A stretch of DNA of 62,476 bases, filler included, from Stramenopiles sp. TOSAG23-6 (Eukaryota), in the NCBI GenBank assembly GCA_900128565.1. It is 30 parts of 30 records of this genome, joined end to end, with 100 filler letters (N's around TTAATTAATTAA, not from the genome) between each part and the next. Parts side by side here need not be neighbours in the genome. Positions count along the whole stretch, not along the records: positions 56,378 to 58,346 come from LT638412.1; 29 more parts are not named here. The stretch is one strand, 5' to 3'. The notes beneath the pieces were generated by a model. That model was not told the DNA's origin. It did no database searches and saw only the letters and a program-made list of their open reading frames with translations. The position numbers and the translations under genes are program-made. Of this stretch, positions 6,374 to 62,424 are shown one piece after another (the stretch's first letter is position 1; each line of letters begins with the position of its first letter).

Positions 6374-8205
6374 GGTAGTGTAATGAAAGACGTAGTTTTA
6401 GAAGGTAAACTAAAGGGAACTCCTGATGTTTTGTCGTCTATAAGCGATTCCACAAATCTTGAAATAGAATCCTGTCAAGTACGTTTTCATCATGAAAATT
6501 TAATTTTTTTTTTTTTGGTAAAAAAAATTTCGTACCTAACAATTTTTTTTTTACCGAAAAAAAAAAACAAAAAAAAAATATTTTTTCACAATACAATCTT
6601 CATCTGAAAATAAAAGTCATTCTATTGTCAATGATAAAAAATCTTCTTCTGATACAGTAATTTGTGATACTAAAAGTCGCCGAGTAAAACGTTCGTGTGT
6701 CTCTAATGCTGAAGCTGGACGACTAGCGCTTGCGAAGGCCAAAGCTATGATGCCTAAAGTAGAGCCTCGTATGTTTTTATTTTCATTCCAAAAACATTTT
6801 TTCAATTTTTTTTTATAGTACATTTTGTACCTAAGAAAAAATCAAATTTTCGAAATATTTTTTACGATACATGTAGTTCAAAGGCTCAACGTTTAGTGGA
6901 TGCGAGAAAAGCTGATATTACTACATCTTGGAAACATTACAAAAATAGGTTTTTAGAAATTTCAAATAATCGGAAATTCAAATGTACGTTTTTTTCATTA
7001 ATTTCAAATTTATTTATTTTTTTTTGAAAAGTTTGTACCTAACGATTTTTTTTTTACGAAAAAAAAAAAAAATATTTTTTCACAATACATACACTCCTCT
7101 TGGTAATAGTTATCCCTCATCTTTACGTTCTATGGGACAGTGGCAACGGATGAATGTGTTTCGAATCGAATTGGCAGCAATGCAATATCAACTTTGCTCT
7201 ATTGGAGCTCCGGCTGCAAGTTATTTGCCGTCTTTAGAAGAAAATACTACTTCAAACATTTCTGAAAACCCTAACCCTAATCAAAACAAAAATGCTTCTG
7301 AAGACGAAGAAGCAGTTGAAAAGTCATGGAAAAAATTTCATTTATTTATGAATAAATGCAGTACGTGGCGAGATATTTTACCTATGCTTGAAGAATTAGA
7401 GATGAGTGCTGTGAAATTCTCAGGGGAAAATGAATTGGATGTATGTTTTATTTTCTTTCAAATTCGAATTTTTTTTTCATACGAAATTTTGTACCTAACA
7501 AATTTTTTAAGATTTTTTTTTGAAATATTTTTCCAAAATACATTCTGATAGTCTTGGTGAATTACCTTTGAATGTTAGTCTTTCTATAATGTATGTTTTC
7601 ATTTGAATTAATTTTTTTTTTAGTTTTTCGTACGAAATTTTGTACCTAGCGATTTTTTTTTAAATTTTCGTACATCGTAAAAACTCGTAAAAAATAATAT
7701 GTACCTAACAAATAAATTTTTCTAAAGTAAAACATTTGCACAATACATTTCTGATTTAAGTAAGAATGGTCCAATTTTAGATCTGGAGGATGACGACGCT
7801 GAAGAATTAGAAGCACAAGGCTCATTATCAAATCAAGTAAGTCTAGGCTATGGTTTTGGATTTGGGTATGGCTGTGGCCCTTATTCTCAAGACTGGCAGA
7901 GTGTTCAGGGTATTCGTATCCCTCCTCCAAATGTTCCATCTTCTCAAATCGTCTGTGACTTTCCCCGTTTATGGCGAACACGTAGAGATCGACAGCGTTG
8001 GTGGGCATTTCTTCAATTAGGAAGGAAAAACACAAATGGTGCCGCATATGCTCTTTTTTGTCTAACATCGGCAATTACCCGGTATATTCAAGCTTTGTCG
8101 CACTACCGTCATCAGAAAGGTTTAGAGGAAAATAGTATAGTAACATATAAAAGTGATAAAAGTCGTGGTCTAATCCGAAAAAGATCTACGAAGACACTGG
8201 ATTAT
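6374..8205 (+). CDS. Multi-exon nuclear protein fragment, possibly WHIM/DDT-type chromatin protein (exons 6374-6478, 6597-6768, 6873-6983, 7091-7440, 7544-7590, 7749-8205)
   Basis: Six exons join in frame when five non-AG introns (1 GT-AA, 4 GT-AT) are removed. LWRTRRDRQRWWAFLQ...AAYALFCL is WHIM3-like (tentative). Confidence 0.6.
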
Positions 8206-8495: not shown

Positions 8496-10190
8496 ATTAA
8501 TGGCAACATCAGGTACAAGCCAAGCTCATAAATATAGGCAGTTAATTCTTGAGCAACAAAATAAAGAATATTTACGAAACGAAAATAGTTTTTCTCATAC
8601 TGGTAACAATAATAATGTTGAATTAGGTATGAAACATTTTGGTACAAATTCAAAAAATTCAAAAAATTCAAAAAATTCAAAAAATTCAAAAATTGTCAAG
8701 CATCAACCACCTAACCCTAACCCTAATGAACACAATCAACCAATGAGACAATTACATCTGATATATAATATGATTGAGTTGGGGGAAAGATTAAGTGGTA
8801 CATTTTCATTATGAATTTTTTACTTAAATTTTTTTTTTTTGGTTTTCATACGAAATTTTGTACCTAACAAATTTCGAATTTTTTTTTTTACAATACATGT
8901 GCTTGGATGGGAGATAGTACTACAATGATTTTACATACAACTACAAATAAACCTAACCCTAACAGTACTGTGTTATCTTCAAGGCATCTTGTAACCCCTA
9001 ACCCTAATCTTGTAACACAATGGAAAAACACAATTTTAAAATTTTCATATCACCCCTCAAACCCTAACCCTACCTCAGATGACCCCAACCCTAATGGTAG
9101 TACTAAATATCATTCAGATAAATTTGTCATTTCTGGAAGTGGATGTTCTATATGGAGAGGAAAGCATGTATATTATCTCTCTTATATTTTTTTTCAATTT
9201 TTTGTCTCAATTTTTTATTTTTTGAAAATTTCAATTTTTTTTTTTTTTTAATTTTTTTAAATTTTTATTTTTTTAATTTTTTTTTTCGTACGAAATTTTG
9301 TACCTAACAAAAAAAAAAATAAATATATTTTTCACAAAATATATACCATTTACAATTACAGGACAATTTTTCCCAGAATCAAGTAAAATGATTATAAAAA
9401 AACGTCATTCCACATTATACCATAACACGTGTCAATATATTGGACGACTTGATTTGAAGACAATCATATGTATGTTTTTTTTCAATTTTTTTTCAATTTT
9501 TTTTTCAATTTTTTTTTCAATTTTTTTTTCAATTTTTTTTTTAGGGTTAGGGTTATACAAACACAATATCGAATTTTATCTATAGTTTCACAATACATTT
9601 ATTTTGAAACGACAAACCGTGAAGAATTAGAAAGTCATACTCAAGCAAAATACAAACCTGCTCCTTCTGCAAAACAAGAGCGAAAAGAATTAAAAGCAGC
9701 TTTGTCAAGATCTAACTTTAACTTGGGTGTATGTTTTTTTTTAAATTTTTTTAAAATTTTTTTTTTTTTTTTTTTTTTGTACGAAAATTTGTACCTAACA
9801 AAAAAAATTAAAATGTTCAAAATATTTTCATACAAAATATCCCCATAAGACGGCCTATACGACAGATTCCCATAGTGCTCATGTAGAGTTTGGCAAGGAA
9901 CATTATGTACGTTACTATTTATATGTATTAGTTTTTGTTTTCATATATTTATTTTTTGTTAAAAAAAAAAAAAAAATGTAATGTAATGTAATACAAAATT
10001 TCATACCTAACAAAAAAAAATATTGTTCTTGACATATTTTAATACATTTTATTCTCCACCTGACATTGAGGAACAAAAACGAAGAAAAAAATTATTGGCC
10101 TCATCCAATTTCGAATTTGGATATCAACCAATTGATTATAAATCGAGTAATCCACATCAAAACACTTCTTTTCACAGGAAAATTGTATAG
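8496..10190 (+). CDS. Hypothetical multi-exon coding region(s)
   Basis: Exons separated by family introns (8798-8898, 9729-9840); repeated SNFxL/FG..Y motif; some junctions unresolved. Confidence 0.45.
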
Positions 10191-16974: not shown

Positions 16975-18690
16975 TGTCTTTACATTTTTTGATTGTCTGT
17001 CAATGGCTCAAGATATGAATACAGCCCAAAGAAAAATGGGTTCTCATGTTCGTTACCCGGGTCACGCTAGTCGAATTGCTCTAACATTAAATATTTTATT
17101 GTCAAATACAATTGCAATGATTTCATCATCATGTACGTTTTTTTTTTTTTTTTTTTTTCGGTAAAAAAAACGAATTTATTTTTTTCGTACGAAATTTTGT
17201 ACCTAACAATTTTTTTTTTTTTTTTTTTCGGTAAAAAAAAAATCGAATTTTTTTTTTATAGTAAATTTTGTACCTAACAATTTTTTTTAGATTTTTTTTT
17301 AAATATGTTTCCAAAATACATTTGCTATTTCGTTTATTAAAAATATTGAATATATTGCTAATGATATTGATGAAGAAAAAACACGAAATCAAGACGACAT
17401 GCAAAACAATGCAGATAATGTGTTGTATGTTGAATGTAGTAATACACTTACATCATATTGTTATAGAGAATTAACGTATAGAAAAAAAATGATGATGTCT
17501 CATAACCCTAACCCTAACCCTAAGAAAAATAAAAAAATTAAAAAAATTTCGACTGTACCAAAACAACAAATGAAAAAATTGAATTCACGAAATCGTAATC
17601 TTAAAAAGTCGGTGAATTCTGAGGTTAAAAAAAAAGAAACAGAAAAGTGGTGTCGAATTCAAATCTGGAAACATGAAATAGAGATAAACCAAAAACAACA
17701 AAAACAACAAAAACAACAAAAACAACAACAAAAACAACAAAACAAAAAAAACAAAAAAAAACAATCAAAAAAAGGAAAAAAAAAATCTCGAAATTCTTTA
17801 GGTACAGAATTTACTACAAAAAAATATTTTTCAAAATATTCTACCGTCAACGATTCAATTTGGTACAATATTGATTCATGTATACGGAATTTCCTAGATG
17901 GTATCTATAAAAGAAATGGTGCTCAAGGCTGGGGAATTGGCCGAGGTGGTTTTTTTGGAGGTAGTGTATGTTGTAGTATAATATTTCAATTTTTTTTTTC
18001 ATTTTTTTTTTGTATGAAATTTTTTTTAGAAAATCAAAAATTTCATTTTTTTTTTTTCAATTTTTTTTTGTATGAAATGTTGTACCTAAACAAAAATTTC
18101 ATTTTTTTTTTTCAATTTTTTTTTGTATGAAATTTTGTACCTAACATTTATCTACAATTTCAAATAGTATCCTAATAATTTATGTCGCCACGTTTGACTT
18201 ACCGATTTCGTGTAAAATTGGTAATCATAAATTGTATAATTTTGACAAAGCTGCTATACAATACGCAAATAGTACTATCAGTTGTCCTAACCCTAACCCT
18301 ACTCAAAAAGACCAACTGCAATATACCTCCGAAAGTAATGCAAAACAACTTTTTAATGTCATATGTTCACCAATTTGGGACTATAACGTATTATTTCATT
18401 ATTCATTTCCAATATTACAATTTTTTTTTTTTTTTTTTTTTTCATACGAAATTTTGTACTTAACAAAAAAAAAATTAAAAAAAAAAAAATATTTTTCACA
18501 ATTTATGCTCGTGAAAAAGGACGAAATCTTTGTTTTGCATATAAACGTTTAGAGTATTCAGAAACTGCATTACAATATAGTTTTTATATTCCTCTTCATC
18601 GTAATTTGGCACATGCGTTAAAATCCTTGTTATGTCGATGCAAAAACGAAAAATATGCGACTTTTATGATTCGTCATTTATCAAGAGTTT
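16975..18690 (+). CDS. Hypothetical multi-exon protein fragment
   Basis: Coding-like segments between family introns; no domain recognised. Confidence 0.4.
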
Positions 18691-23157: not shown

Positions 23158-23708
23158 GGACAACTGATAAATAGGCATTGTCTACCATGTGCCAAACAAC
23201 TCGCAGATTTGACCTCAATACAGAATGTGACACAAAAAACGTTTGACAATGCATTGAGGAAATCATCAACATCATGGATAAAGCTTCTACTTCGAAAAGG
23301 CTATCATCCAACTATCCCTCAAATTACCAACATGCTTACAAAATTTCAAGTAAGCAAATTTCTTGTATGTTTTATTTTTTTTCAATTTTTTATCGAAATT
23401 TTTTTTTTTTTTGAAAATTTTGTACCTAACAAAAATTAAATTTTTTTTTGAAATATTTTTCCAAAATACATGAACCTCACATGGGCCTAGGTGTAAATTA
23501 TGCTGATGGAGAAAGTCTAGCAAGCCTTATCGGAAACAACGAACTTGACCTTTTTGATTTTGTGACTGAAGAAGACCAAATCAAATTTAAAATACAACTG
23601 AAGCAACTATATTTGGTTCTATCAAAATCTCGTCCTGTTTCAGAAGACAAAAAACAAAGGCTCAAGGAATGCGTACGCGTGACCAAAAAAATCTTTGAGA
23701 GGGTTTAA
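23158..23708 (+). CDS. Hypothetical protein, 3' exons (23158-23364, 23472-23708)
   Basis: In-frame join across GT-AT intron 23365-23471. Confidence 0.5.
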
Positions 23709-27161: not shown

Positions 27162-27291
27162 NNNNNNNNNNNNNNNNNNNNNNNNNNNNNNNNNNNNNNN
27201 NNNNNTTAATTAATTAANNNNNNNNNNNNNNNNNNNNNNNNNNNNNNNNNNNNNNNNNNNNTAGAAAACTATATTTATTTTTTTACAAAAA

Positions 27292-28470
27292 TTATGAATC
27301 AATTACAGCAGCAACACCTTTAATTTGGCTTGCATCAACACCTTGTTGTTCTTTTGCAAATCCAAGGAATATTTGTTCAAGTGTTGTTTGTCCAACACAA
27401 TATTCACTTAGTCCAAGGGCATCTTTATTACGTTCCAAGAGGCCAAATACTTTTCCAAGAGGAACCTTTGTGTCATTTCCAACATCCATACTACCACCAT
27501 TATTACCCATACTACCACCATTATTACCAATACTACCACCATTATTACCAATACTACCACCATTATTACCCATACTACCACCATTATTACTACCACCATT
27601 ATTACCAATACTACCAACATTATTACTACCACCATTATTACCAACACCCATACTACCATTATCAACATCCTCACTAAATGGTAAAGAAAGACGTAACGAA
27701 TTACCATGTTGTTCAACTAAAACAGCATCAGGTGATATATTTTGTTTACACCAAGCAAGTAAATTATCAAGTACATCTTCTGCAATCCACCACTCAATAA
27801 ATGATGGTACATNAACACTATTTTGCTGCAAAAGNAGATCTTGTAACACCCATGAAGATGATCCAGGTATACTGAATGATTCATATCGTGCAGCGTTACC
27901 TAGTTGTTGACATGCATTTAAAAGTTGATTTGAAGGTATTTTTAAGTCTGTAGCACTTTGTGCACCGTCAATATTTCCTGTTGTATTTGTTTTTATATTT
28001 CCTACACAAAGTGACTGAATTGCTGTAATTAATTGTACACTTTTCTCTCGACTACCTGGAGCAACGCGAACTTCTAATTGATATCCATGTCCATATCTAT
28101 CCTTTAAATGCTGCTCTGATCCAATGCACCGTAATCGACCATCCACCATGATTCCAATACGGGTACAAAGCGCAGAACATTCTTCCATTGAATGAGTCGT
28201 CAAGATAATAGTAGCCTCCCTATTCTGTGTTGATATTTCTGATATGAGAGACCACATGAAACGTTTTGCCACTGGATCCATTCCTGCTGATGGTTCATCC
28301 AGAAAGATAATTGGTGGTGCACCAATTAATGCAATGGCTACACATAATTTACGTTTATTTCCTCCAGATAATGATCCAGCAGATTTATCTGCAAACTCAA
28401 CTAAATCCATCTTTTTAATTTTCTCTTCAATCTCCATATTCAATGAATCGCCTTGAACACCTTTAATCAT
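27292..28470 (-). CDS. ABCA-subfamily transporter, C-terminal NBD2/regulatory part (5' truncated)
   Basis: [40 protein letters not shown] and QTTLEQIF are present; Walker A is absent. Confidence 0.9.
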
Positions 28471-29251
28471 TAGGGTTTTGGTGATGCAGTTGTTGTTGCA
28501 GCTGTTGGTGTTGGCGTTAGTGCTGGTGTTAGCAATGCAGTTGTTGGTGATGGCGTTGGTGATGCCGTTGGTGATGCAGTTGGTAATGGTGTTGGTGATG
28601 CCGTTGGTGATGCAGTTGGTAATGCAGTTGTTGTTGCAGCTGTTGGTGTTGCCGTTAGTGCTGGTGTTAGCAATGCAGTTGTTGGTGATGGCGTTGGTGA
28701 TGCCGTTGGTGATGCAGTTGGTAATGGTGTTGGTGATGCCGTTGGTGATGCAGTTGGTAATGCAGTTGTTGTTGCAGCTGTTGGTGTTGCCGTTAGTGCT
28801 GGTGTTAGCAATGCAGTTGTTGGTGATGGCGTTGGTGATGCCGTTGGTGATGCAGTTGGTAATGGTGTTGGTGATGCCGTTGGTGATGCAGTTGGTAATG
28901 CAGTTGTTGTTGCAGCTGTTGGTGTTGCCGTTAGTGCTGGTGTTAGCAATGCAGTTGTTGGTGATGGCGTTGGTGATGCCGTTGGTGATGCAGTTGGTAA
29001 TGGTGTTGGTGATGCCGTTGGTGATGCAGCTGTTGGTGTTGCCATTAGTGCTGGTGTTAGCAATGCAGTTGTTGGTGCAGCTGTTGGTGTTGCAGTTAGT
29101 GCAGCAGTTGGTGCGGCTGTTGGTGATGCAGTTGTTGGTGTGCCTATTGGTGCTGGTGATGCAGTTGGTGGCAGCTGTTGGTGTTGCCGTTGGTGATGCA
29201 GTTGTTAGCGCTGCAGTTGGTGTTGCCGTTGGTGTTGGTGTTCTAGGTTGT
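28470..29251 (-). repeat. Pro/Thr/Ala mucin-like coding repeat, 138-nt (46-aa) unit about 4 times
   Basis: [46 protein letters not shown] repeated. Confidence 0.8.
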
Positions 29252-29634
29252 NNNNNNNNNNNNNNNNNNNNNNNNNNNNNNNNNNNNNNNNNNNNTTAAT
29301 TAATTAANNNNNNNNNNNNNNNNNNNNNNNNNNNNNNNNNNNNNNNNNNNNATAGGAAATTTTGTACCTAACGGTTTTTCACTAACTTTTTCACTTTTTT
29401 TTTATATTGTACACAAGTCATCATATATCTTTGTGTTCAATTGAATCTCAAGAGGATAGAAATTTATGTTTTGTATCGACAGAAAATATTCAAAAACCTA
29501 ATCCGACACCTAGAACAATTATCCAGTTATATTTCAAGAATCAGAAAGACTTCACTTCATGCTCTCCACAAGAGTACCTATTCATTATTCATCACTGTCG
29601 ACAAAGTTTTTTTACGCCAATTAAATTGCAAATA

Positions 29635-31248
29635 ATGAGTTCTGATGATATATCAGCTGTGTATCACAACAAAACCCATGAAGAATGTGTTCCTACCCCG
29701 GCAGAGCTCGCGATGAAGAATGGCTCTGGTATTGGTGACATGGAAGACATGGTAAATGGCCTTGACCTAGGCCCTGACGTTAGTCGTGGTTCTCGCCCAC
29801 CAATGGTACTCAATCGCGTTGTTTCCAAGCGACGTGCACAACGTAGAAAAAACAGTAATAATAGGGAAGTAGAATCAAAAAATAACGAAAATGTATCTGA
29901 ATTATCTAATTTGGAGTCTCCAGTGAAAAGTGAAAAAACCTCGGTTATACCCGGAACTCAATCAATCTGGGTAAAGACGTATGGTTGTTCCCATAACATC
30001 AGTGACAGTGAATACATGTCAGGAATGCTTGATTCTTATGGATATCGTATCGTTGAAGATAAAAGCTCTGCAGATCTTTGGCTTATTAATAGCTGTACTG
30101 TAAAGGATCCTTCGGAAAGCGCTTTTGTTAATTTAGTGGAAAGAGGAGCTAAACTAAACAAGGGTGTTGTTGTGGCAGGTTGTGTACCCCAAGGTGATGA
30201 AAATGTACGAGGTCTTGAAGATGTCAGTGTTGTTGGTGTTAGCCAAATTGATCGGGTGGTGGAAGTTGTTGAAGAAACTTTAAAAGGTAATACTGTCCGC
30301 CTGCTCGCGAAGAAGTCACTTCCCCGCCTCGATTTACCAAAAATTCGTCGTGATAATCTCATTGAAATTATTCCCTTATCAACTGGTTGTCTCGGTGCAT
30401 GTACATACTGCAAAACAAAACATGCTCGTGGAGTATTAGGTTCTTACACAATTGAAACTATTGTTAATCGGGCTCGTGTGGCTATTGATGAAGGTGTTGG
30501 TGAAATATGGCTTTCATCTGAAGATACTGGTGCATATGTATGTGTTCAACCCTAACCACTAGTACCCCTAACCACTTCAAATTTCGATTTTTTTTTTTTT
30601 CAAAATCATGTCTCTAACGAGTTTTATTTGAGTTGAAATATGTTCCAAAATTACATGGTCGTGATATTGGAACAAGTCTTCCTTCGCTACTTAATGCACT
30701 CATCGAACTCCTACCTATTGGAGGAAATACGATGCTCAGAGTTGGAATGACAAATGTATGTTTTATTTTTTTTTTGTTTTCGAAAAAAAAAAAATCGAAT
30801 TTATTTTTCGTACGAAATTTTGTACCTAACAAATTTTCTAAATTTTTTTGAAATATTTTTCCAAAATGCATCCGCCTTTTATTCTTGATCATTTAGATGA
30901 AATTGCGGACGCTTTAAATCATCCTCAAGTATTTTCATTTCTTCATGTTCCTGTCCAATCTGCTAGCGATAATGTTCTTCGTGGGATGAATCGTGAATAT
31001 ACAAGAGATGAGTTTTGTCGCGTTGTAGACTTTTTACGCCGACGGGTCCCGGGTATCGTCATTGCGACAGATATTATTTGTGGCTTTCCTGGAGAGACGG
31101 ATGTTGATTGGTTAGATACACTCAGACTTGTTAAGCGATATGAGTTTCCTATATTAAACATCTCACAATTTTATCCACGACCAGGAACGCCAGCCGCTCG
31201 AATGAAGCGCGTGAGAACTCAATTAGTCAAAGCGCGATCTCGAGAATT
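29635..31248 (+). CDS. CDKAL1: tRNA methylthiotransferase CDKAL1; exons 29635-30537, 30657-30755, 30872-31248
   Basis: TYGCSHN, radical-SAM [54 protein letters not shown]. Confidence 0.95.
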
Positions 31249-31493
31249 GTACGTTTCATTATGATTTTTTTTTTCTTTTTTTTTTTTTTCATAGTAAATT
31301 TTATACCTAACAAAAAAAAATTTTTTCAAAAAAAAAAAANNNNNNNNNNNNNNNNNNNNNNNNNNNNNNNNNNNNNNNNNNNNTTAATTAATTAANNNNN
31401 NNNNNNNNNNNNNNNNNNNNNNNNNNNNNNNNNNNNNNNGGTACAAAATTTCGTACGAAAAAAAAATTCATACAAAAAAAAAATAAAACATAC

Positions 31494-33578: not shown

Positions 33579-34662
33579 GAGAGCAGCACAACAAAAGCTA
33601 AATGATGGTCTTGAGGCAATGGATGCTTTACGAGCGAGGAGAGCCTTTGAAAAAAAAGACAGAGAAGCAAGAGAAAGTACATTTTTAGTATGAATTTCAT
33701 TTTTTTTTTTTGAAAATTTTGTACCTAACATTTTTAGTATGAATTTCAATTTTTTTTTTTTTTTTAAAATTTTTTTATTTCAAAAAAAAATTTTGAAAAT
33801 TTTTTCCGTACGTAATTTTGTACCTAACAAATTTTTAGTATGAATTTAATTTTTTTTTCACAATACATGGGAATTGCGTGAAGCGAGGGAACGTAAACAG
33901 CGTATAGATGACATGCAAGCAGCAAGAGGCATTCAAGCGTTAGCAGCAGCTCGACGGCAAAAAAGAATTATTCAAGATCAAAGAGAAACATTTCACCGAA
34001 ATTATCAAGCTCAAGCTGAGCAGCGGGAGTATGTTTTTTTTTTTGAAAAAAAAATTTTTTTTTAGAAAAAAAAAAAAAAAAAAAATTTTAAAAAAAATTT
34101 TAAATTTTTTTTTTGGTTTTTTTTTAGTAAATTTTCAAAATACATGCAGATTCGATTAGTGGAAGAAGCAAAACAGAATTTTAGGGAGCAAAATCGTGAT
34201 GATATTCTTGCCCAGGTACAAGAAAAAGAAGAAAAGAGAAAACAAGCTCAAAAACGTTATATGTTCGTTTTATTTTTCTTGAATTTCGAATTTAATTTTT
34301 TTCGTACGAAAATTTGTACCTAACAATTTTTTTTTTATAGAAAATTTTGAAATATTTTCAAAAAATACATCAAGGAGGGGCATGAAAATGTTCGACGACG
34401 TGAGCGAGAACTGGAAGATGTGAATAAAATACAACAACAAAAGATTGAGTTCTTACGCTCTAAAGGTGTTCCAGACGCATACATGTACTTTTTTAATTTT
34501 AATTTTAATTTTTTTTTTTTTTTTTTTTTTTCGTACGAAATTTTGTACCTAACGATTTTTTTTACACTTTGGACATTTTTTTAATTTTACAGGAGTGATA
34601 TAATCAAATATGATGCACAAAAGGTCATGATGGACGACTATAAAAGAGGAGGCAGACGGTAA
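33579..34662 (+). CDS. CFAP45: Cilia- and flagella-associated protein 45, 3' exons (33579-33676, 33869-34028, 34146-34262, 34371-34484, 34593-34662)
   Basis: DALRARRAFE...KEG...KIEFLRSKGVPDAY matches the CFAP45 C-terminus; three GT-AT introns and one GT-AG intron. Confidence 0.8.
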
Positions 34663-35641
34663 TACTATTATATACTTACGAAGATATGTACAAGTTTTAA
34701 AAATCTAAAAATGTTTTGACATTTTTGCAAAAAAAATAAATTTAGATTTTTTTGATTGTAGAATTGCAAAACGTTTTTTTTTTTTTTTTTTTTTTTTCTT
34801 ACGAAATTTTTTACCTAACAAAAAAAATTTTTTTTTTTTTTNNNNNNNNNNNNNNNNNNNNNNNNNNNNNNNNNNNNNNNNNNNNNNNNNNNNNNNNNNN
34901 NNNNNNNNNNNNNNNNNNNNNNNNNNNNNNNNNNNNNNNNNNNNNNNNNNNNNNNNNNNNNNNNNNNNNNNNNNNNNNNNNNNNNNNNNNNNNNNNNNNA
35001 AAAAAAAAAAAAAAAAAAAAAATTTTTTTTTTTTTTTTTTTTTTTTTTCCATAGAATTTTTTTTTAGTCAATAATTTTGAACTCAATATCTTTTTTTTAA
35101 TGACACGTTTATTCTTCACTCTACATGGGGTAAGCTACTCACAGCAGGTGATGGAAAATATGATTCTTAAAAAATATACAATGCAGCATATATAAATTTT
35201 CATTGGCAAAGAAAATTTTTGTTTGAAAATTTTTGAGAATTTTGAGATTTTTGGTGAAATTTCAAATTTTCGTATTTTCATTCTTGTATGAAATGAATAT
35301 CGTTATATTTTATGTATCTATTATATATAAACATATATATAACAAATCTCTCTACATATATATATTTTAATATCATACATTTCATAACGAAAATATTGTA
35401 AACAGATGCAAATGCAAAGAAAAAAAAAATGTTTTTGCTTAGGTACAAAATTTCGTATGAAAAAAAAAAAAAAAAAAAAAAAAACGTTTTGCAATTCTAC
35501 AATCAAAAANNNNNNNNNNNNNNNNNNNNNNNNNNNNNNNNNNNNNNNNNNNNTTAATTAATTAANNNNNNNNNNNNNNNNNNNNNNNNNNNNNNNNNNN
35601 NNNNNNNNNTTTTTTTTTTTTTTTTTTTAAAAAATTTTCCC

Positions 35642-35675
<34 letters not shown>

Positions 35676-35715
35676 AATTTTTAATTTTTAATTTAATTTT
35701 TCTTTTTCATTCAAG

Positions 35716-37496
35716 CGACATTACTATTTACAAAATTAAAACGTTTGAAACAATATCTTTACAAATTATATTTGGGGTGAGAGTGAAGATGAAAATGAAA
35801 TCATGACAAATTTAAACGTTATGTGTACAGACCTATCTTTTGTGATTTCGTGTTGTTCAAAAACGTTTTCTTCTGGAGCTTCAGGAAATAATGTAGGAAA
35901 TAATGTCGAATCAGATTCAATCATTCAAAATGCTTTAAATGATCTTGGTATAATTCCATTTATTAATGAAATGTTGAAAATTCCAGTCCCAGATGTACGT
36001 TTTCAAAATATTTGTACAATGTTTATTTTTTTTTTATATGAAATTTTGTACTTGAAAAAAAAAGATTTTTTTTTTTTTTTTTTTTTTTTCAAAAATTTAA
36101 AAATTAAAATTTTTTTTTTTTTTTAAGACCTATATAAGAAAAATTTTATACCTAACAAAACAATTCTGAAAAAAAAAATATTTAATGCAAAATGAAAAAA
36201 CTGAAAATCTGGAACTCAATTCTAATACTATTGATGAAAAAAATAAAAATTTTGAAAATACAAAAAATGATTTCAGAGTTGGCGTCAAAGTGATTGAAAC
36301 ACTTCAAAAGTTTAATTTCTTATTAATTGCTTGTACGTTTTTATTATTATTTTTTTCTTTTTTTTTGTTTCGTAGATAATTTTATACCAAACAAGAAAAC
36401 AAAAAAAAAAAAAAATTTACACTACATGGATAAAAACAAATAAGAAAACTCAAGAAATAATGAGTGTATATGCGACAAGTCTGTACGAGCATATTGATTT
36501 AGTACCCGGTACCACTGATATGATTTGTGAAATTTTCAGGAATAATTTTGATTTATGTAAAGAAATCCCATATGCTCTTTTAGACTATTATATAATGAAA
36601 ATAATGAAGACAAATGATCCAAAAGCAGAATATACGTTTTCATCTTTATCATACACTTTTTTTTTTTTTTTTTAAATTTTTTTTTTTTTTAATTTTTTTT
36701 TAATTTTCATAGTACATTTTGTACCTAACAAAAAAAAATACCAAAAAAAAAATATTTCTTCACAATGTTTATCTGTCATTAATGAATATTGTATGTAATC
36801 CAGAAAACAAAGCAATACGAGATAATCAAATGTTTATTTTAAATAAATTAATGAGCAAAAAAAGAAATCAGAAGTGTCTTTTGCTATTTGCAAATGGAAA
36901 AGATTATGAAACACGAAAAACATTAATGAATAGAAATAATTTTATGGCATCAAATGTATTGCAATATCATATTCAATTATTAGAATTATTATCAAGTTGC
37001 TGTGCTGGAGATTTTAATTTAGCAGAGGCAAAATGTCAAACTGCGTTACATTCAACAGATCTTTTACGAGGCATTCTTGATGATGATACTAAATGGAGTA
37101 TTAAACTTCCACTGTTGCACCTTTTTTATAATATGTATGTTTTGTTTTGTTTTATTTTGTTTTGTTTTATTTTTTTTTTTATTTTCGGTAAAAAAAAAAA
37201 AAATCGAATTTATTTTTTTTTGGTAAAAAAATTTTGTACCTAACAAATTTTTTTAGATTTTTTTTTTGAAATATTTTTTTAAAATAAATGTGTATAGAGG
37301 CAGAGTTGAAAATTGCAGGATTAGTAAATGATGAAAGTTTTCATACGTTAATGGAAAATTTCAATTCATTTTTAGTCAAGTATTGTGAAATTGGAGCAGT
37401 TGGTATACAACAACATTTATATTCGATTGATTTAACAAAGGAACCTCAACTATTTCTTGATTATCAAAGATATGGGGAGAAAGGAGTGACGTCAAT
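35716..37496 (+). CDS. ITPR: Inositol 1,4,5-trisphosphate receptor-like channel, RIH-region exons
   Basis: EIFRNNFDLC and YHIQLLELLSSCCAG...AEAKCQ...CIEAELK align with ITPR; four complete introns, none ending in AG. Confidence 0.8.
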
Positions 37497-37753
37497 ATAT
37501 GTTTTACTTTTTTTTTTATTAATTTTTTCGTACGAAATTTCGTACCTAACAATTTTTATTTTTTTTTTATTTTTTTTTTGTATGAAAAAAAANNNNNNNN
37601 NNNNNNNNNNNNNNNNNNNNNNNNNNNNNNNNNNNNTTAATTAATTAANNNNNNNNNNNNNNNNNNNNNNNNNNNNNNNNNNNNNNNNNNNNACTTGTAC
37701 TATTCCTGTTTGTGTTTTTATATAAACACTTGTAACTGGTGTGTTACTTAATG

Positions 37754-46140: not shown

Positions 46141-47826
46141 CGAACTTTCGATCACATGACTGAAGATAATAAGAATTTGCAGGATCTGCGATATATAATG
46201 CATCAATGAATAAACCTGCTGCACGTACAGCTGCACAACACGAATTCCATTGAAGATTTCCAATATGTTTTGTGAAAAAAATTCTACAATTTTCTTTTTT
46301 TTGTTAGGTACGAAATTTCATAGTAAAATACAAAAAAAAAAAAAAAAAAAAAAAAACCTAAAATTCGTTAGGTACAAAATTTCGTACAAAAAACAACAAA
46401 CACCTTGACCAGCAAATCCAACATAGAGAATATTTGATTGTTTTGATTTGCAAAATCTATCATAAAAATGATCCGTAGCTGCGAAAACTTCTGTGAATAT
46501 TTCTTCCCGTCCTAACCCTAACCCTAACCCTAATGAAGTTTCATTTTTATGTTTGTTTTTTTCTATGCTATTTTGAATACTATAATTTTGATATAAAGTC
46601 TCATTTACATTATTATCCAGGTTTGTTGATGTAGGGTTAGGGTTATTCCATGCAATACCTAGACGTCTTTTGGAGTTTCGTAATGCAGCTTTATGTTCAA
46701 AGATATTTTGTTTTGTTTTTTTTGTAAGTTAGGGTTAGGTTTAAAAAAAATTCAAAAAAAATATTTCATGAAAAAAAATATTTCATGAAAATATATATAT
46801 ATATATATATATAGTAGGGTTAGGTTTTTTTTGGTATATATGTGTGGAAAGAAAACGTACCAGCCTTTTTCATATTAAAATAATTGCAACTCAAACCTAA
46901 ATTTGTTAATTTTGAAAGTTTAGAAAATATTCCATCATTTAATATGTCTATATCTTTTAAAAAATTCATTTGCAAATATAATGATTTAAGTTTCACTAAT
47001 TTTGATAGAGACTGAGGAAGAGCACATAACATATATTGTGAAAAAATATTATTATTATTATTTTTTTTTTTTGGAAAAAAAAAATATTTGTTAGGTACGA
47101 AATTTCGTACGAAAAAAAAAACCGAGTAAAAACATTAAAAAATTCAAAAAAATAAAACATACTGATTATTATGAGCATCGATTTTTTCTAATAAAACACA
47201 ATTTCCAATTTCATTTGGTAATGCCCTAATTAAATTTCCATAAATATGTAATTCACGTAACATTTTTAATTGACCAATTTCAGCAGGTATGTCCTTTAGC
47301 TTATTATCTTCAAGATGTAAAATAGATAAAAGAGTTAATTTTGATATAGAAACATAATTAACAGATGTGTCTAAGCCAACTACTACTGTTGTACTAGGGA
47401 TATTTGAGATTGTAGTGTTGTTTTGATTTTTTTGATTTTTTTGAATTTTTTGAATTTTTTGAATTTTTTGATTTTTTTGATTTTTTTGAATATTTAAATG
47501 TTCAATCTTATTTGATGCTAAATGCAAAACTTTTAATGTTTTTTTCTGATATAATATATTATTTGGTATTTTCTTGAAATTATTCCATGAAGCAAGGAGG
47601 CATTGAACATTATGGCAGTTTTTCAATAATACAAGTATTGTGAAAAAATATTTCAAAAAAAAATCTTAAAAAATTCGTTAGGTACGAAATTTCGTATGAA
47701 ACTAAAAAAAAAAAATTAAATTAGAAATTCATATAAAACATACAAGCGGTGTATCCTGTGCGTTACCTTCCATTTCGAGTACTTTCAAAGAACGTTTTGC
47801 ATAGTACTTTTCTGTTTTGAGAAGAA
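46141..47826 (-). CDS. Multi-exon LRR protein with an additional C-terminal domain
   Basis: LHLEDNKLKDIPAEIGQLKMLRELHIYGN; introns 47633-47743 (GT-TT) and 47031-47162 (GT-AT). Confidence 0.7.
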
Positions 47827-48153: not shown

Positions 48154-50011
48154 TCTTCGTTCTTGGGGTCAGTTTTGTCAGTTACCCAATTGGCCATCAA
48201 ATTTTCGCCAATTAAGTTGGTTATACGGAGTAAATGGTCTTCATGTGTGGTGGCCTTCTAAATCTCGTCGCCATCGTCGTTTGCCATCCCCTTTCCATTG
48301 GGAAGCCGATACTGTTCCGATTGCTATTCACCCTTCCTTTGCTGCCATTGCTCTCGCTACGGGTCTTCGTTATACACATGCTCATCTTCCTCCAATATTT
48401 GACCTTCGCCCTGTGGCACAGCCATGTCTTCATGTTTTACTAAATACTATTCTTCATGAATTTATTGATAATATTGACCTTGACAATGAAATATCCATGC
48501 TGATTGTACAGGGGGAAGTTCGTGTAGTATATAAAAACATGGGAGATGAAAATATTGTTCATTTGAACAAGAAAACACTCGAATCAAAACAAATGGATGA
48601 AAACAAGAAAACACTCGAATCAAAACAAATGTATGAAATTGTTAAAACATCTTCATTATTAACCACCCCTTTAGGTAAAGAATTATTACAACTATGCCGA
48701 GCTGCTAAAAGTTTCGGCCATTTATTTACATCTTTTGAACTTTTAGTTCATCATTCATTTCAGCATGCTTTTGAAGCTCGTGAGCAATTATATAAATATT
48801 TACACAAACAAAATGAAATCAAAATAACAAAGCAGGATAAAGACAAATATATGATATCGCTTTTATTGTTTCATTCAGCAGTTGACATTTTAGTATATTG
48901 TGATATGATGTATAAAAAAGAAGAGGAAGAATTGTATGAAAAACAATCAGCTGTAGATGATGGAACAGAAATGTCAGAGCTACAAAGTAATGCTCAAAAA
49001 GATCTCCCTATTAATGCTCAAAATGATCTCGCTATTAATGTACTATTACGTGTAGCTCGAGCAAATGACCCAAGTCGCTGGGGGATGCTATTTGGTTATC
49101 ATTATCCAAACTATCCTATACAATCTCTTCCATTAAGCGACATTTTTAATAGATGTATTTCAGCTGGAAATCTCAAAAAAGCTTTTTTTACATTGAATAT
49201 TCTCAGTTCGGAGTATATACAATCATCAAATTCAAGTTATGTCAATGATGAAACCAAAACGACTTATATTCAAATGTTATTTGATTCTGCACTTCAACAA
49301 AATAATTTATCCATTGCTGCTGATGTTTGGCATCTCTATTCAAAAAATAGAGAAATAGAAAAAAAGAAGGAGAGATCCGCCTCCATCCATATGCATCATG
49401 AACGGCTTTTAAATTCGAAATTTAATGTTGAAGATAAAAACGATCCCTCCTCTCTTGAGGATGAGAAAAACAAAAAAGATTCTCTTAATTTTGAAAATGC
49501 AATTTTAAGGAGTAAACGATCATGTATGTTTTTTTTTTTTTCAAATTTGAATTTATTTTTTCGTACGAAATTTTGTACCTAACAAATTTTTTAGATTTTT
49601 TTTTAAAATATTTTTCCAAAATACATATGATGATGGGATCTTTCAAACGACGCCAAAACAAGGCATCCATGCGAAAACGGCACATTCATTACAAACATCC
49701 TTGAATGCATACATATCCAAAATATCTCAAAAGCATCAATTGTTATATGAAACAGAAAAAGATAATATTTTATCCAAAAACATACATGATGAACATGAAA
49801 ATAATAAAATAAATAAAAATAAAAACAGTGCGGGTGCAGTACATGTTTCGAATAATAATAAAATAAATATAAATAAAAACAGTGCGGGTACAGTCCATAC
49901 TTCAAATAGTGGTGAAACAAAAAAAGTATTTCATGGTGCTGGTGTAGGATCAAAAGTGAATACTATAACGTTGCGTGATAAAGAAAAACAACATAGAATT
50001 CGTGTGAGAAT
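48154..50011 (+). CDS. RIC1: RIC1-like RAB6 GEF subunit, C-terminal region
   Basis: WLYGVNGLHVW, QPCLHVLL, FELLVH, VARANDPSRWGMLF...IFNRCISAGNLKKA. Confidence 0.7.
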
Positions 50012-52338: not shown

Positions 52339-54024
52339 ATTACACGAATTCCCGCCTCATTTAAGAACTAGAACATTATTGAATTTACACAAAAGTCTAA
52401 TTTTACAAGTCCCCTTTTTTAATGAGTGTTTGTTTTCATTACTAAAAATGTTTTTTTTTTTTGGTTTTTTATAGTAAATTTTGTACCTAACAATTTTTTT
52501 TTTTTTGGTAAAATTTTTTTTGAAATATATTTTTTTTTCATAGTAAATTTTGTACCTAACAATTTTTTTTTTACAATATTTTTAAACAATGTAGGTGATG
52601 AAAGTTTCATTCGTGAAGTCGTAAATTGTCTTGAATTACAAGTTGCGTTACCTGGTACAACAATTTATAATTGTGGTGAAATTGGAGCAGATATGTAATT
52701 TATAACAAAATTGAATTTACGTTTGATTTTTTTTTTTTTTTTCATAGTAAATTTCATACCTAACAAAAAAAAAATTCAAAAAATGTAAAACAAAATTGAT
52801 TTTTTTTTTTCATACGAAATTTCATACCTAACCAAAACAAAAATTCAAAAATATTGTTTCACACTGAATGTATTTTGTTCAAAATGGATGTGTAAAATTA
52901 TTAGTCGGTCGAGCTCATCAAAATGTATGTTTTATTTTTTCTTTACACAAAAAATTCGATTTTTTTTTTTTGGTTTTATACGAAATTTTTACCTAACAAA
53001 TTTTCAAAAAATTTTTTTGAAATATTTTTCCAAAATACATCGCTCTTCATCACGTAAGCTTAACCCTAACCCTAAACATGATACAACGAATAACACAAAT
53101 GAAGATGAGTCTAGTTATGTGACAAATGAGGATACATCGTCGATTTCTATTGACTCTAGTATGTTTTTTTNAAANTNGAANTTTTTTTTTTTTNGNTTTT
53201 TTATAAAAATTTTGTACCTAACAAAATTATTTTTTTTTTTGAAAATATTTTTCTACAATACAAATTCAGATGATTTGTGGAATGTGAATACAAAAAAAGG
53301 AAATTCGTATCAAGCTCACACAAGTAAAAATAAAACAAATAAACAAAAAGTAAAAAAAGTTAAACGAAAATCGACATTAAATTATAGTACTAGTGTACAT
53401 GCAAAAGACAAAAATGGTACAAACAATAATACGAAAAAAAAAAGATATTCAGAAAAACGAAAACGTCAAAAGTATAAAAAAACAAATGTTTTTAGTGTGT
53501 TACGAGCAGGTGCATGTATGTTTTCAATGTTTTTGTTTCAAAATATGATGTTGCGTGTCTAACAAAAAAAAATTTAAAAAAAAATTTAAAAAAAAAAAAA
53601 AATTTAAAAAAAATTTAAAAAAAAAATTTAAAAAAAAAAACAAATATTTAAAAAAATAATATAACCCTAACCCTAATATACTTTTACAATACATATTTTG
53701 GTGAGGTTGAAGTTCTCCTTCGCAATGTTCGTCGAATTTGTTCTGCAGAAGCAGTCTCAATGACAGAATATTATGTACGTTTTTTTTTTTTAATTTATTT
53801 TTTGTACGAAATTTTGTACCTAACAATTTTATTTTGAAATTTTTTTTTCATACGAAATTTTGTACCTAACAATTTTTTTTTTGAAATTTATTTTTCAAAA
53901 TACATGGAATTCGACAACATCGGTTAAAACATATGCTTTTAAATTTTCCTGAAATTGCAACACAAATGAAATTCGAAGCCTTAACAAAAGTTCGTGATTT
54001 AATACGTTCGATTTATTGGAGAAT
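52339..54024 (+). CDS. Cyclic-nucleotide-binding (CNG/HCN/EAG-type) channel, C-linker and CNBD exons
   Basis: VPFFNE|CDESFIREVV...GEIGAD|MYFVQNG...LRAGA|YFGEVEVL...RRICSAEA; six complete introns (1 AG, 4 AT, 1 AA). Confidence 0.85.
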
Positions 54025-55102: not shown

Positions 55103-56146
55103 CGTAAAAATTTTTTTTTCAAAATTTTAAATTTATTATTTTTTTTTTTTTTTTTTTTTTGAAATCAGTTTTGTACATAACTATTTTTCTATCTAATATT
55201 TGTCCAACATGCAGCAGGGCTTTCTTCTGGTTTGAGAAAGTGGATACCTCAGACAGTATTGAATAAAAATAATGTAGAATTTAGAAGAGTTCCGCCATAT
55301 GATTCAAATAATCAACAAATTGATAATGACATGTACATTTTCATTATTTGAATTTTTTTTTTTTTTTTTTTAATTTTTTTCGTACGAAATTTTGTACCTA
55401 ACAAAATTTTGAATTTTTTTTTTTTTTTTTTTTTGAAATATTCTCATTGTACAATTTAATTTTTGAATCTTCACACCATACATGCTTTTTCGTGTATTTC
55501 GTGCAATCAAAGGTGATATTTTTATTAGTACACTGTATACAAGACCAATTTCTATTTCTGACATAAAAAATAGTAAACAGATAAGGGTTAGGGTTCCAAC
55601 GATTGCTCTTATTCATGATTTAATACCAGAGCAATTCAAGTGGGATATGACGTCATCCGAATGGTCCGCTAAAAAACGTGCAATTCAACTTGCAAACTCT
55701 GTGTAGGTATTAGGTACAAAATTGAAATTTTTTTTTCAAAATTGAAATTTTTTTTTTCAAAAATTTTTTTTTTTTCAAAATTTTTTTTTCATAGTAAAAT
55801 TTCCTACCTAACAATTTTTTTTTTTTCCAAAATACAGAATTACTGTGTCAAAAGCAACAAGACGATTATTATATGAATTTTATAGAGACGTGCCTGCGTT
55901 AAGTGCACATCCGACGACTACCATAAACACTCAAAACGATGTAAATAACAATGTAAATAACCCTAACCCTACCACAAACACTCAAAACCCTAACCCTAAA
56001 AATATTTCACATGAAAAAATACAGAAAAAAAGACTTTTTGTTCCAGTCATGGCTAATAAAGTGAATACAATATTTCGTCCAAAATCTCAATATACAATAC
56101 AAAAATTACGACAGAAAATTGGTTTACATCCTGAGAAACCCTATTG
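54410..56146 (+). CDS. GT4-type glycosyltransferase fragment
   Basis: DIFISTLY...IALIHDLIPE...KKRAIQLANS...TVSKATRRLL. Confidence 0.65.
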
Positions 56147-56244: not shown

Positions 56245-56398
56245 TTTTTTTTTAAAAAAAAAATTTAATTTTTTTTTNNNNNNNNNNNNNNNNNNNNNNN
56301 NNNNNNNNNNNNNNNNNNNNNTTAATTAATTAANNNNNNNNNNNNNNNNNNNNNNNNNNNNNNNNNNNNNNNNNNNNTTTTTATTTTAATTTTTAATT

Positions 56399-56432
<34 letters not shown>

Positions 56433-56492
56433 AAATTTTGTACCTAATGATTTTTTTTTTAAGAAAATTTTGAAATATTTTTCATAATCCAT

Positions 56493-58226
56493 GTCAACGT
56501 AGGAAGTCTTTATGGGAAATATATCCACAATATCCTTTATTTTCAAGATTTTCTGAATGGCCAAAACGATCTGTACCTGTAGTAGGTTGTGGTAGTGCCC
56601 CACAGTCACCACCACAGCCACAGCAACTTATATGTAGTGTATGTTTAATTTTTTAATTTTTAAATTTGATTTTTTGTATGAATTTTTTTTTTTTGAAAAT
56701 TTTGTACCTAACAAATTTTTTTTTTATTGTAAATTTTGAAATATTTTTACAAAATACGGGCACCTCAAAAGATTACAAATGCATCGATTGTATGTATTTT
56801 TTGTAATGTCTGTCTTAGTCGTCTAATTACGATTGATTCTAGACGATTAATGTATGTTTTTTTTTTTTTTACAAAAAAATCAATTTTTTTTTTTCATTTT
56901 CAATTTCAATTTTTTTTTTTTTTTTTTTTGAAAATTTTATACTTTACAAAAAAAATAATTTTGAAATATTTTTTCATCTATATGTTCCATTTGATGCTAA
57001 ATTAGTAAATCTTGAAAATCCAAAAAGACTTTTATCTCCATTATTTTGTGTCGAAGCGCAGTGGCATATTGATCCTACGTTACATTCAGTCGATGGAAAA
57101 AGTTATAATAATAAAATTGCTACACGGTGGGTGATTAGCTGTGGTTATTGGGATAATCAATTTAGAGTCACTGAAACAAATTCAGGTAAAGTGGTACAAA
57201 CCTGCTCTGGTCATCGTAATGTAGTATCGTGTGTTGCTTTATCTGAAGATGGTGTTACATTAGTGACTGGTTCCGTTGATGCAAGTGTTATATACGTTTT
57301 AATTCTTGATTTTTTGGAATTAATTATTTGGGTTAGGGTTAGGGTTTGAAATATTTTTTTTTGAAATTTTTTTTTTTGTACCTAACAAAAACAACAAAAA
57401 CAAAAATTTAATATTTTTTTAAATTAAATGATTTGGAGTCCTATTTTAGTTCACTGTGCTGTAGATAATTTGCATAATTTAGTACCAAAAAAACCTAGAA
57501 AAACAATATTTGGACATCATGTACTTTTTCAATTAATCCTAACCCTAATTCTGTGTCGATATTTTTTTTCGTAGTAAATTTCGTACTTAACAAAAAAAAC
57601 AAAAAAATTTACTAAAAAAAAATATTTTCCTATACTACATGTAATGGTCAATTGTTGTGCAGTCAATGCACAATTAGGTATTGTCATTAGTGCAGATGAT
57701 GCTGGTGTAATTTTAATTCATAGACTTGAAAGTGCGATTTATATAAGAACAATTTTATGTTCAAAACCATGTACGTCTTCAATTTCAATTTCAATTTCAA
57801 TTTCGATTTTTTTTTTTTTTTTTTCGTAGATAATTTTGTACCTAACGATTTTAGTTTTTTTTTTTTTGAAAATATTTTCCAAAAATATATATTTATCTTC
57901 ATCGATTGGAGTGAAAACAGATTATACCATGAATAGTAATTCTGAATACTTACTATCACCTGCCTCTACTACATTTACTAGTCCAATCCGAACATCTTCG
58001 ATTTATACGTCATATAAAACTCAAAACAAAATAAATCAAATACCTATAGCTGTACATTGGATTAATATATCTCCAAATGGATATCTTGTTGCTTACTCTG
58101 GCGATAATTGCTCTCTCACAACGCATTCAATAAATGGTAAAAAATTAAAATATATAGAATTAAATGAACATTTGAATGCTTTACAACTGACAACAGATGG
58201 TCAAATGCTTCTCACAGGAGGGACAA
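56493..58226 (+). CDS. BEACH-protein (neurobeachin/NBEAL-type) C-terminal WD40 region
   Basis: ISCGYWDNQFRV...GHRNVVSCVALSEDGVTLVTGSVDASV|MIW...FGH...LGIVISADDAG. Confidence 0.75.
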
Positions 58227-58635
58227 ATATGTTTTAATTTTTTTAATTTTTTTTTTTTTTTTTAATTTTTAAATTTGAAATTGAATTTTTTTTTTTTTTT
58301 AAAATTTTTTACCTAAAAAATTTTTTTTTTTTTGTAAAAAAATTTTNNNNNNNNNNNNNNNNNNNNNNNNNNNNNNNNNNNNNNNNNNNNTTAATTAATT
58401 AANNNNNNNNNNNNNNNNNNNNNNNNNNNNNNNNNNNNNNNNNNNNCCTACTATATTTTTTTATTGATGGAATGATCAACGATTTTATTTTAAGCTGCAA
58501 AAAAAAACAATAAAGAATTTATAACGAAAATTTGATTTTATTTCAAAGATTATACCAATTAATTAACAAAGTACTACAAGTTGTATACAACGAACAGTAC
58601 AATTTCAAGTGTTGATTTCATTATACGAAATTATA

Positions 58636-60706: not shown

Positions 60707-61076
60707 CTTTTCTTTGACGCCAAGAAAAGGACAATTGACAACAATTTCTGAGGAAGAATCCACTCAAAGCGTAATATTTACGTAATACTGTACCTTGTAT
60801 GAAAGAAATCAAGAGAACGTAAACAGAATATTTAACTTGCACATATAATAAAATATGATGTTTCACAATAATCTGATAATCGTATATATTAGTATTATTA
60901 TTTTCTCATGAACAGTCTTTCAATTTTTTTGTAATTAAATTTTTAAATTTCGAAAATGTTGATACGTTTTCCTAATTTGAAATTTGCTACTTTCGTTTTT
61001 GGCCGCGCCAAACAAACAAAATTATTGACTCTTATGTTTTCTAATAAATTCTATTTTTTTCAGTAACAATAGTATC

Positions 61077-62424
61077 ATGGATTTTTATGACGTAATTTTG
61101 TTCTTGGTATCTACTAAAGGGTATCAAACACTTACTATAATTCTATTGTGTGTAGCATATGTTATTTTTACTTTGAATCGTAGAGAAGATGCGAAGTTGC
61201 TAAAGGCTGAGCTGGCCTTGGAGAAAGTAGCAAGAGCAACATTGGCTTCTTCTGTACGTAATGACCTTGTTGACAGTAAACACGAGTACACCAAAGACGA
61301 AGAAGATAATGATATTGTCATCATTAGTAAATGTGACATAAATGATAAAAGTCAGTCATGTTTACAATCTGAACAAATAAAAGTGTGTCGCTCTTCCCTT
61401 TTTGCTCCCTTGTCGCGTAGAAAGGTGGTTGTACCAACTGATTTTGGTAATATTACAGTCGATATCGTTGGTAATCCTTCGACAGCGTCTCGTCGTTTCT
61501 TGGCGTACCATGATATTGGTATGAATGGTGAAAGTTGTTTTAACTCTTTTATCCAAGTATCTCATGGTGACGCGAGGTTCAGCTCGGGGGGAATTTGTTT
61601 CTATCTAGTAAATGCTCCTGGTCATGAAAAGGGTGCAACTACACAAAATGATAATTATCTATATCCTACTATTCCACAGTTGTCCTTACAACTAAAGCAA
61701 ATTTGCAAGACATTGAAAACGGGGCGTGTAATAGGATTAGGCGTCGGAATTGGCTCTCGTATTCTCTTAGAACTTGCGACAAGAGTAAGTCTGTCATCAA
61801 TTATTTCAAATTGTTTTTTACTCTATTTCGTACCTAACAGGTTTTTTTTACTGATTTTACACAACCCAGGATGAATATTCAGATGAGTGCGTTCCCAGTA
61901 TTTTTTCTGGTTTGATCATAGTTGGGCCAACACAGACCAAAGCTGGATATATGGAAAAGATAAGTAATTTCATCATTTCAAAACTTTTGCGAATATTTGG
62001 TCATGGCTATTTAACTACAACTAAAACAAATTCTGCGTTAGAAAAAGAATCATCAGTGCAATTGACAGAGAGTAGAAAAAGTCGTAGTTGGTTCGATGAA
62101 TTTATTTCACGACAACATTTTAGTCCAAGAGCAATGATGTATGTTTTATTTTTTTTCAATTTCGAATTTATTTTCATACGAAATTTTGTACCTAACAATT
62201 TTTAGTTTTTTTTTTTTGAAATATTTTTCCAAAATACAAAAGACAAACAGAATTAATTAATGACATGTGTGAAGCTGCAAAATCTATTCCATCAGTAAAT
62301 ATTTCTGGTTTTATTGAAACTTCTTATTGTAGAATGGATCTGTCGCCACAACAAAAATCAAGATTAAGAAAATTACGGCTCATGTGTATTGTTGGTACAC
62401 ATACAAATAACTTACGATGTCGAT
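61077..62424 (+). CDS. NDRG-family alpha/beta hydrolase with N-terminal TM segment
   Basis: LAYHDIGMNGESCFNSF, VNAPGHEKGA, YPTIPQL, VIGLGVGIGS; introns 61785-61869 (GT-AG) and one starting at 62139. Confidence 0.85.

Follow-up and report, generated by a model that had tools for sequence, protein, structure and literature searches.

Introners are mobile intron families described from Micromonas, Aureococcus, Symbiodinium, Chrysochromulina and other hosts (PMC9860276). A family that resembles them occurs in DNA of Stramenopiles sp. TOSAG23-6 (assembly GCA_900128565.1), an AT-rich marine eukaryote, studied here in a stretch of 62,476 bases (the window) in which 30 sampled pieces, each about 2 kb long, are connected through N-TTAATTAATTAA-N linkers. 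Most copies of the family begin with the donor GTAYGTTTT, and four begin with A at the first position (A-start copies). The best-supported reading, held at roughly even confidence from the sequence, is that the first G of the intron may be replaced by A in this family.

The family shares several features with introners. Dozens of near-identical introns interrupt unrelated genes, their ends resemble short inverted repeats, the splice signals are carried within the element itself, and the host is a marine protist (PMC9860276). That survey found its elements through annotated GY...AG introns, whereas the family in the window ends in AT and would escape GY...AG-based screens.

The closest resemblance is to the non-canonical introners of Amoebophrya and to the non-GT/AG introns of Fritillaria. 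The former are repeated introns with inverted-repeat ends, termini other than GT/AG, and short direct repeats over the boundaries that make the cut slidable (PMC7789003). Their description reports no consensus terminal dinucleotides and an apparent lack of U1 components, in contrast to the present family, in which GTAYGT and a branch-point-like box are strongly conserved and departures are confined to position 1 (G or A) and the 3′ end. Unlike the Amoebophrya elements so described, the A-start copies and the copy at 6479 do not keep the terminal stem.

The second of these is an animal, Fritillaria borealis, many of whose non-canonical introns are reportedly derived from mobile elements. In both cases U2-type machinery would handle introns that escape GT/AG at both ends, but Fritillaria differs in its duplicated U2AF subunits, its 95% of non-canonical introns and its other termini (PMC13326754). 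Compared with these two, the family appears to hold strictly to a donor and box of yeast-like form, and only its two terminal positions are relaxed. AT-AC introns, which are U12-type or rarely U2-type, likewise start with AT rather than GT and have a 3′ end that is not AG; here, however, the donor is ATAYGTTTT, the 3′ ends are ...AAAT and ...GTTT rather than AC, and the A-start copies derive from a GT-starting family by point change. We rate the family as what appears to be a variant of the known non-canonical, transposon-derived introner-type introns. No description of it was found in the literature on introners and non-canonical marine splicing, where supplementary tables might list the lineage, and a literature search for the box sequence returned unrelated primer matches only.

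Family members that begin with A

The family insert breaks open reading frames and runs from 5′ GTAYGTTTT, continued by CATYATG... or ATTTTTT..., through TTTCGTACGAAATTTTGTACCTAAC to a 3′ end ...GAAATATTTTTCCAAAATACAT. GTAYGTTTT is matched 46 times in the window against 2.64 expected, and most of the roughly 80 boxes resembling TACCTAAC lie within the repeated insert. Many similar copies stand at unrelated positions in different genes, as in mobile families of the introner or miniature inverted-repeat transposable element (MITE) kind. The A-start copies are the following.

57292-57429, plus strand: complete A-start family intron, ATACGTTTT...TTAAAT, with full-length homology to G-start copies
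57379-57386, plus strand: branch-point-like box TACCTAAC of the 57292 intron, its start 51 nt before the next exon
36632-36770, plus strand: second complete A-start family intron, ATACGTTTTCATC...CACAATGTTT, with its box at 36722-36729, 49 nt before the next exon
37497-37592, plus strand: A-start member with its 3′ end lost at the piece end, ATATGTTTTAC..., box at 37543-37550
58227-58346, plus strand: A-start member with its 3′ end lost at the piece end, ATATGTTTTAA..., degenerate box TACCTAAA at 58310

The last two inserts are ended by N linkers at 37593 and 58347. An earlier sequence-only reading of this DNA had given the same termini for 57292-57429 (ATACGTTTT...TTAAAT) and had described 36632-36770 as ATACGTTTT...AATGTTT, ATATGTTTT as the start of the inserts at 37497 and 58227, and all of these inserts as devoid of the U12 donor ATATCCTT; each of these descriptions was borne out.

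By itself, ATAYGTTTT is not enriched in the window (8 matches against 5.37 expected, with 16 of 100 shuffles reaching 8). It is the family context that goes beyond chance: of the eight matches, exactly four (57292, 36632, 37497 and 58227) combine a downstream TACCTAA(C) box, 46-90 nt away, with an upstream open frame of at least 20 codons. At random positions, four or more of eight would be reached with a probability of 0.004 for a box at 25-200 nt and 8.6e-5 for a box at 40-100 nt. An alignment of 15 sequences shows the four copies to be homologous to G-start copies along their whole length, its first column holding G 11 times and A 4 times, the latter in the four named copies. The A-start copies belong to different sub-types (ATAC... 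or ATAT..., with different downstream 5′ parts), and the change from G to A therefore arose more than once. Four further A-start candidates were rejected: those at 18361 and 34259 have their true donors at 18388 (GTATTATTT) and 34263 (GTTCGTTTT), and those at 60962 and 42597 are intergenic.

The spectrum of donor variants was compiled from copies that match GTAYGTTT[T/C] elsewhere and have a box and an open frame, with 28 consensus copies.

Donor position 1: G>A 4, G>C 0, G>T 1 (an off-family site with its box at 186 nt)
Donor position 2: no variants
Donor position 3: A>T 3
Donor position 5: G>A 4, G>T 3
Donor position 6: no variants
Donor positions 7-9: one or two variants each

A is as frequent at position 1 as at the semi-free position 5. 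Since G>A is present at position 1 and no family-like pyrimidine is, the site behaves as purine-only rather than as an invariant G. The A-start copies retain GTAYGTTTT from position 2 to position 9 as well as the TACCTAAC box, giving the extended donor and branch box of the U2 type. The terminal rule of that type, GT/GC...AG, does not hold: four copies start with AT, and AG is absent from 33 3′ ends. Both complete A-start copies end in T, like most G-start copies, so that no covariation is seen between the two terminal positions, which the sequence-only reading had suggested may be relaxed together.

A U12-type assignment was ruled out on the letters of the donors, which read ATACGTTTT or ATATGTTTT and not /RTATCCTT (a slash marks the cut) or ATATCCTT. 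Read two bases further upstream, ATATACGT matches the U12 donor at 6 of 8 positions only and is without the CC core. The U12 branch box, TCCTTRAY, lies about 10-15 nt from the 3′ end, whereas TACCTAAC starts 51 nt (57292) and 49 nt (36632) from the next exon.

Boundaries of the family and its probable spliceosomal character

When 3′ ends are placed by tail alignment only, the phase of the upstream frame is preserved in 25 of 35 N-free rows, where chance would give one third; at a tail score of at least 27 the figure is 19 of 21. A curated set comprises 33 complete family introns, for some of which phase helped to choose the 3′ end, and its 33 of 33 in phase is to that extent circular. Copies left out as ambiguous are those at 2539, 2781, 34029, 34485, 35995, 36333, 42106, 52428, 52691, 52925 and 46860 (minus strand), together with all copies cut by Ns. 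The curated introns begin with GT (31) or AT (2) and end in AT (27), AA (2), TT (2), TA (1) or GG (1), never in AG. In 20 of the 33 the preceding exon closes with AT, the next exon begins with G in 17, and the box starts 38-89 nt (median 51) before the next exon.

The first AG after the box was ruled out as the acceptor, because it is in phase in 12 of 33 introns only and never coincides with the family 3′ end. As a separate observation, an AG follows the box in 12 of 33 family introns, often within TTTTAGATTTT (for example 49576-49626, 17271-17321 and 37237-37289), and the first AG is intronic in 9 of 33. One family tail, at 55805-55837 (plus strand), ends CCAAAATACAG instead of ...ACAT and so has AG at the usual 3′ end of what is a putative family intron.

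A non-family intron of 85 nt at 61785-61869 (plus strand), GTAAGT...TCGTACCTAAC...CCCAG, has the same box as the family. The presence of the box in an ordinary GT...AG intron indicates that it is apparently the general spliceosomal branch signal of the organism, and this sharing with ordinary introns is the main reason for taking the family as spliceosomal. Among the G-start copies, the following serve as the family reference or lie in the same gene as the 57292 intron.

49524-49626, plus strand: consensus-like young G-start copy, the family reference, GTATGTTTT...TCCAAAATACAT
57521-57640, plus strand: G-start family intron, same gene as 57292, GTACTTTTT...CTACAT, box TACTTAAC
57771-57890, plus strand: G-start family intron, same gene as 57292, GTACGTCTT...AAATATAT

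Reading frame and protein junctions

Excision of the inserts at 57292 and 36632, from A1 through the 3′ end homologous to that of the family, preserves the reading frame in both cases. Open frames of 149 codons upstream and 47 codons downstream flank the former, and 85 and 156 codons, respectively, flank the latter. If the four A-start copies are retained, the frame stops after 19, 14, 32 and 3 codons. The exons joined at 57292 are as follows.

56984-57291, plus strand: upstream exon, a WD40 propeller of neurobeachin type, with ...GSVDASV plus AT at its end
57430-57520, plus strand: downstream exon, (M)IWSPILVHC...GHH, with the next family donor at 57521

Removal of 57292-57429 joins ...GSVDASV to MIWSP, as the sequence-only reading had it. 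The upstream exon matches Pfam NBCH_WD40 (E 3.4e-15, profile positions 92-148), and the match to positions 1-35 of 39 of the Pfam WD40 profile finishes on its last V. For comparison, 1320 WD repeats were taken from 150 generic multi-repeat WD40 proteins, which are not orthologues. Exactly two residues separate the hydrophobic residue from the W in 1313 of 1321 cases, and the residue before W is L in 819, V in 239, I in 212 and, among the rarer ones, Y in 2. A scan of donor/acceptor pairs around 57292 gave 496 that are in frame and stop-free, of which 8 produce the WD motif, none ending in AG. V-M-I-W results from four of the eight, starting TA, AT, TA and AT; three others start TA, AC or CG, and one starts GT (57296-57433, V-I-Y-W, ending TT). 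At 57292, a normal WD40 strand, in which an aliphatic residue precedes W, arises only from cuts whose first base is A or T, and V-M-I-W only from the segment 57290/1/2 to 57427/8/9.

Removal of 36632-36770 yields KAEYLSLMN, again as anticipated. The name ITPR, which had been attached to this gene, serves as a lead only: Pfam is silent on the exons, and Atlas points to RIH/RYDR_ITPR clusters with a score of 0.95.

Proposed removal of A-start introns and its implications

The four inserts would be older, diverged copies of a mobile family of introner-type spliceosomal introns, each copy of which supplies its own donor of yeast-like form (GTAYGT), branch box (TACCTAAC) and 3′ terminus (...AYAT). 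In these copies the first G would have mutated to A, with removal still occurring at the usual family boundaries. A U2-type spliceosome would remove them from RNA, A being the first nucleotide of the excised RNA and U presumably the last, and the machinery would require of the first intron position only that it be a purine, G or A. This tolerance of A may be tied to the non-G 3′ end. A more general proposition, that the family follows a third terminal rule, [G/A]UAYGU and ...AYAU/, in which neither 'universal' terminal G is required across the mobile family, is tentative and on balance doubtful. The earlier claim that the donor G is dispensable thus stands in part: true family members with A for G, 3′ ends other than AG and the WD40 cut at 57292 are all upheld, and dispensability as such is carried no further than the even confidence given above.

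If the A-start copies are spliced, the family would represent a natural mutational scan of a spliceosome working without AG. Essential donor positions could then be read directly (T2 and T6 invariant, position 1 taking G or A only), and the interaction between first and last nucleotide in the second splicing step would become testable where the last base is U. Nearly all genes of the lineage will be mis-annotated, and the introner family missed, by standard gene finders that insist on GT/GC...AG.

Several points weigh against replacement of the first G by A. To our knowledge, in the systems studied G1>A abolishes splicing or severely impairs it, except where the intron ends in C. A-start is confined to diverged copies (4 of 21 at a consensus score of 32 or below, 0 of 18 above) and to 2 of the 30 pieces (35610-37592 and 56378-58346), with two copies in each gene (permutation P = 0.013). 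In those two genes every family copy has diverged from the consensus; read most simply, the genes hold an old insertion cohort with accumulated tolerated substitutions, and local decay would also fit the clustering. The 3′ end lies within the window for two of the four copies only. The WD40 argument relies on generic WD40 proteins instead of orthologues, and the 36632 junction is without homology support, as Pfam found nothing in the flanking exons. The register in which A is the first excised nucleotide is, from DNA, inherently ambiguous. Searches of transcript-derived proteins with exon 1 (lengths 56-179, 92-294 and 180-2000) returned nothing, and no relative came to light when metagenome contigs were scanned at the protein level.

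Alternative explanations

The A-start copies may instead be dead introns, in which G1>A stops removal and the carrier genes or alleles are decaying or their mRNA is mostly non-functional. G1>A is a classic splicing-null change, and the limitation to diverged copies clustered in two genes would fit decay. Yet 4 of 50 exact-motif donors (8%) would then be lethal lesions in otherwise intact genes, long open frames flank the inserts, and a conserved WD40 strand spans the junction. Decay should also give every substitution, as at position 5, whereas only G>A is seen, with no G>C and no family-like G>T, and the frame is kept in both testable copies. Dead introns are accordingly considered an unlikely account.

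Less likely still, the whole family could be cut two bases upstream, as /AT-GTAYGT...ATAC/AT. The introns would then be of an AT...AC type that never had a first G, and the variable base would be position 3, where purines interchange. That cuts can slide is real, as had been proposed, because the exon usually ends in AT and so does the intron: 57290-57427, 57291-57428 and 57292-57429 give one mRNA, and 36632 slides from -1 to +2. Introns that pair A1 with a C at the end are known to be spliced, AT ends the exon before 20 of 33 introns, and ...ACAT ends most introns. The inverted repeats ATGTAT and ATACAT also pair in minimum-energy folds of four young copies, with weak z-scores of -0.4 to -2.5. 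However, the remaining exons end in TT, AA, GT, TG, CA, TC or AC, and the consensus-perfect copy at 23365 has TT before GT. The shifted register gives AT in 20 and AC (counted by hand) in 23 of 33, against GT in 31 and AT in 27 for the unshifted one; 57292 would become AT...AA and 36632 AT...GT.

The terminal stem itself is absent in the two A-start copies and in 6479, that is in 3 of 7 folds, and a terminal hairpin was ruled out as a requirement. The last two exon bases equal the last two intron bases in 19 of 33 introns (permutation P = 0.099); as this match is not above shuffles, a target-site duplication is not demonstrable here. An origin of the first G from such a duplication was also ruled out, since young copies have G1 although the first base of the following exon is T, A or C.

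It is very improbable that the A-start copies use the GT at positions 5-6 (57296, 36636), with the 3′ site shifted by 4 nt alike. The sequence-only reading had singled out splicing from this GT, four bases downstream, as a case that would tell against it. G5T6 is kept in all four A-start copies, and 57296-57433 is workable in frame, with G-S-V-D-A-S-V-I-Y-W fitting the WD motif pattern. Yet Y precedes W in only 2 of 1320 repeats, compared with I in 212. The donor would be GTTTTA, which is without the family GTAYGT, the 3′ cut would lie 4 nt into exon sequence that is unique, where 31 curated G-start introns end at the family-homologous end, and the internal GT combined with the normal 3′ end gives a frameshift and a stop.

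Hardly any credence is given to removal at the DNA level (elimination resembling that of internal eliminated sequences) or to A as an error of single-cell amplification or assembly: the ends do look like short inverted repeats flanked by AT, single Ns are scattered through the assembly and the two best DNA runs are very small, but long open frames exist under the standard code, the donor is of spliceosomal type, the box is common to a GT...AG intron, the boundaries are not TA/TA, and four independent G>A errors at one family position with none at 2 or 6 are very unlikely. A ciliate-type internal eliminated sequence was rejected on the same features, the lack of TA/TA bounds and the standard code.

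The window and related data sets

GC content in the window ranges from 20 to 43%, and the standard genetic code gives open frames of up to 695 codons. Pieces 1-2003 and 27262-31339 are GC-richer than the others (0.41-0.43 against 0.20-0.30); the piece at 27262-29251 contains long tandem coding repeats. Scattered single Ns are present in the assembly. The sequencing runs that share words with the window are marine, seven RNA runs containing 0.04-0.13 of the words sampled, and DNA runs 0.55, 0.55 and 0.26, the two best of the latter being very small; these shares carry no weight for or against splicing or habitat. Rfam gave no match anywhere in the window, and scans of viral contigs gave chance coding matches only, or nothing. 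A DNA motif scan of metagenome contigs recovered one G-start copy in an independent contig (L001, 2467-2583, minus strand), ACAT/GTATGTTTT...CACAATACAT/GG, which shows that a further data set also contains the lineage.

Two tandem ...GTACGAAATTTTGTACCTAAC box regions are found in the introns 17133-17321, 33677-33868, 52484-52560, 53775-53905 and 46310-46374 (minus strand), which suggests internal duplication or nested insertion of family copies. Short tracts resembling telomere repeats, (TTAGGG)2-3.5 and no shorter than 13 nt, number 20 in the window; examples are 8710-8726, 17503-17523, 46511-46533, 55958-55999 and 57330-57346. Many of them lie within open frames, where they read N-P-N-P, L-G-L-G or R-V-R-V. 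The tract at 57330-57346 sits in the A-start intron 57292-57429, and telomere-like tracts are also present in the flank of the metagenomic copy.
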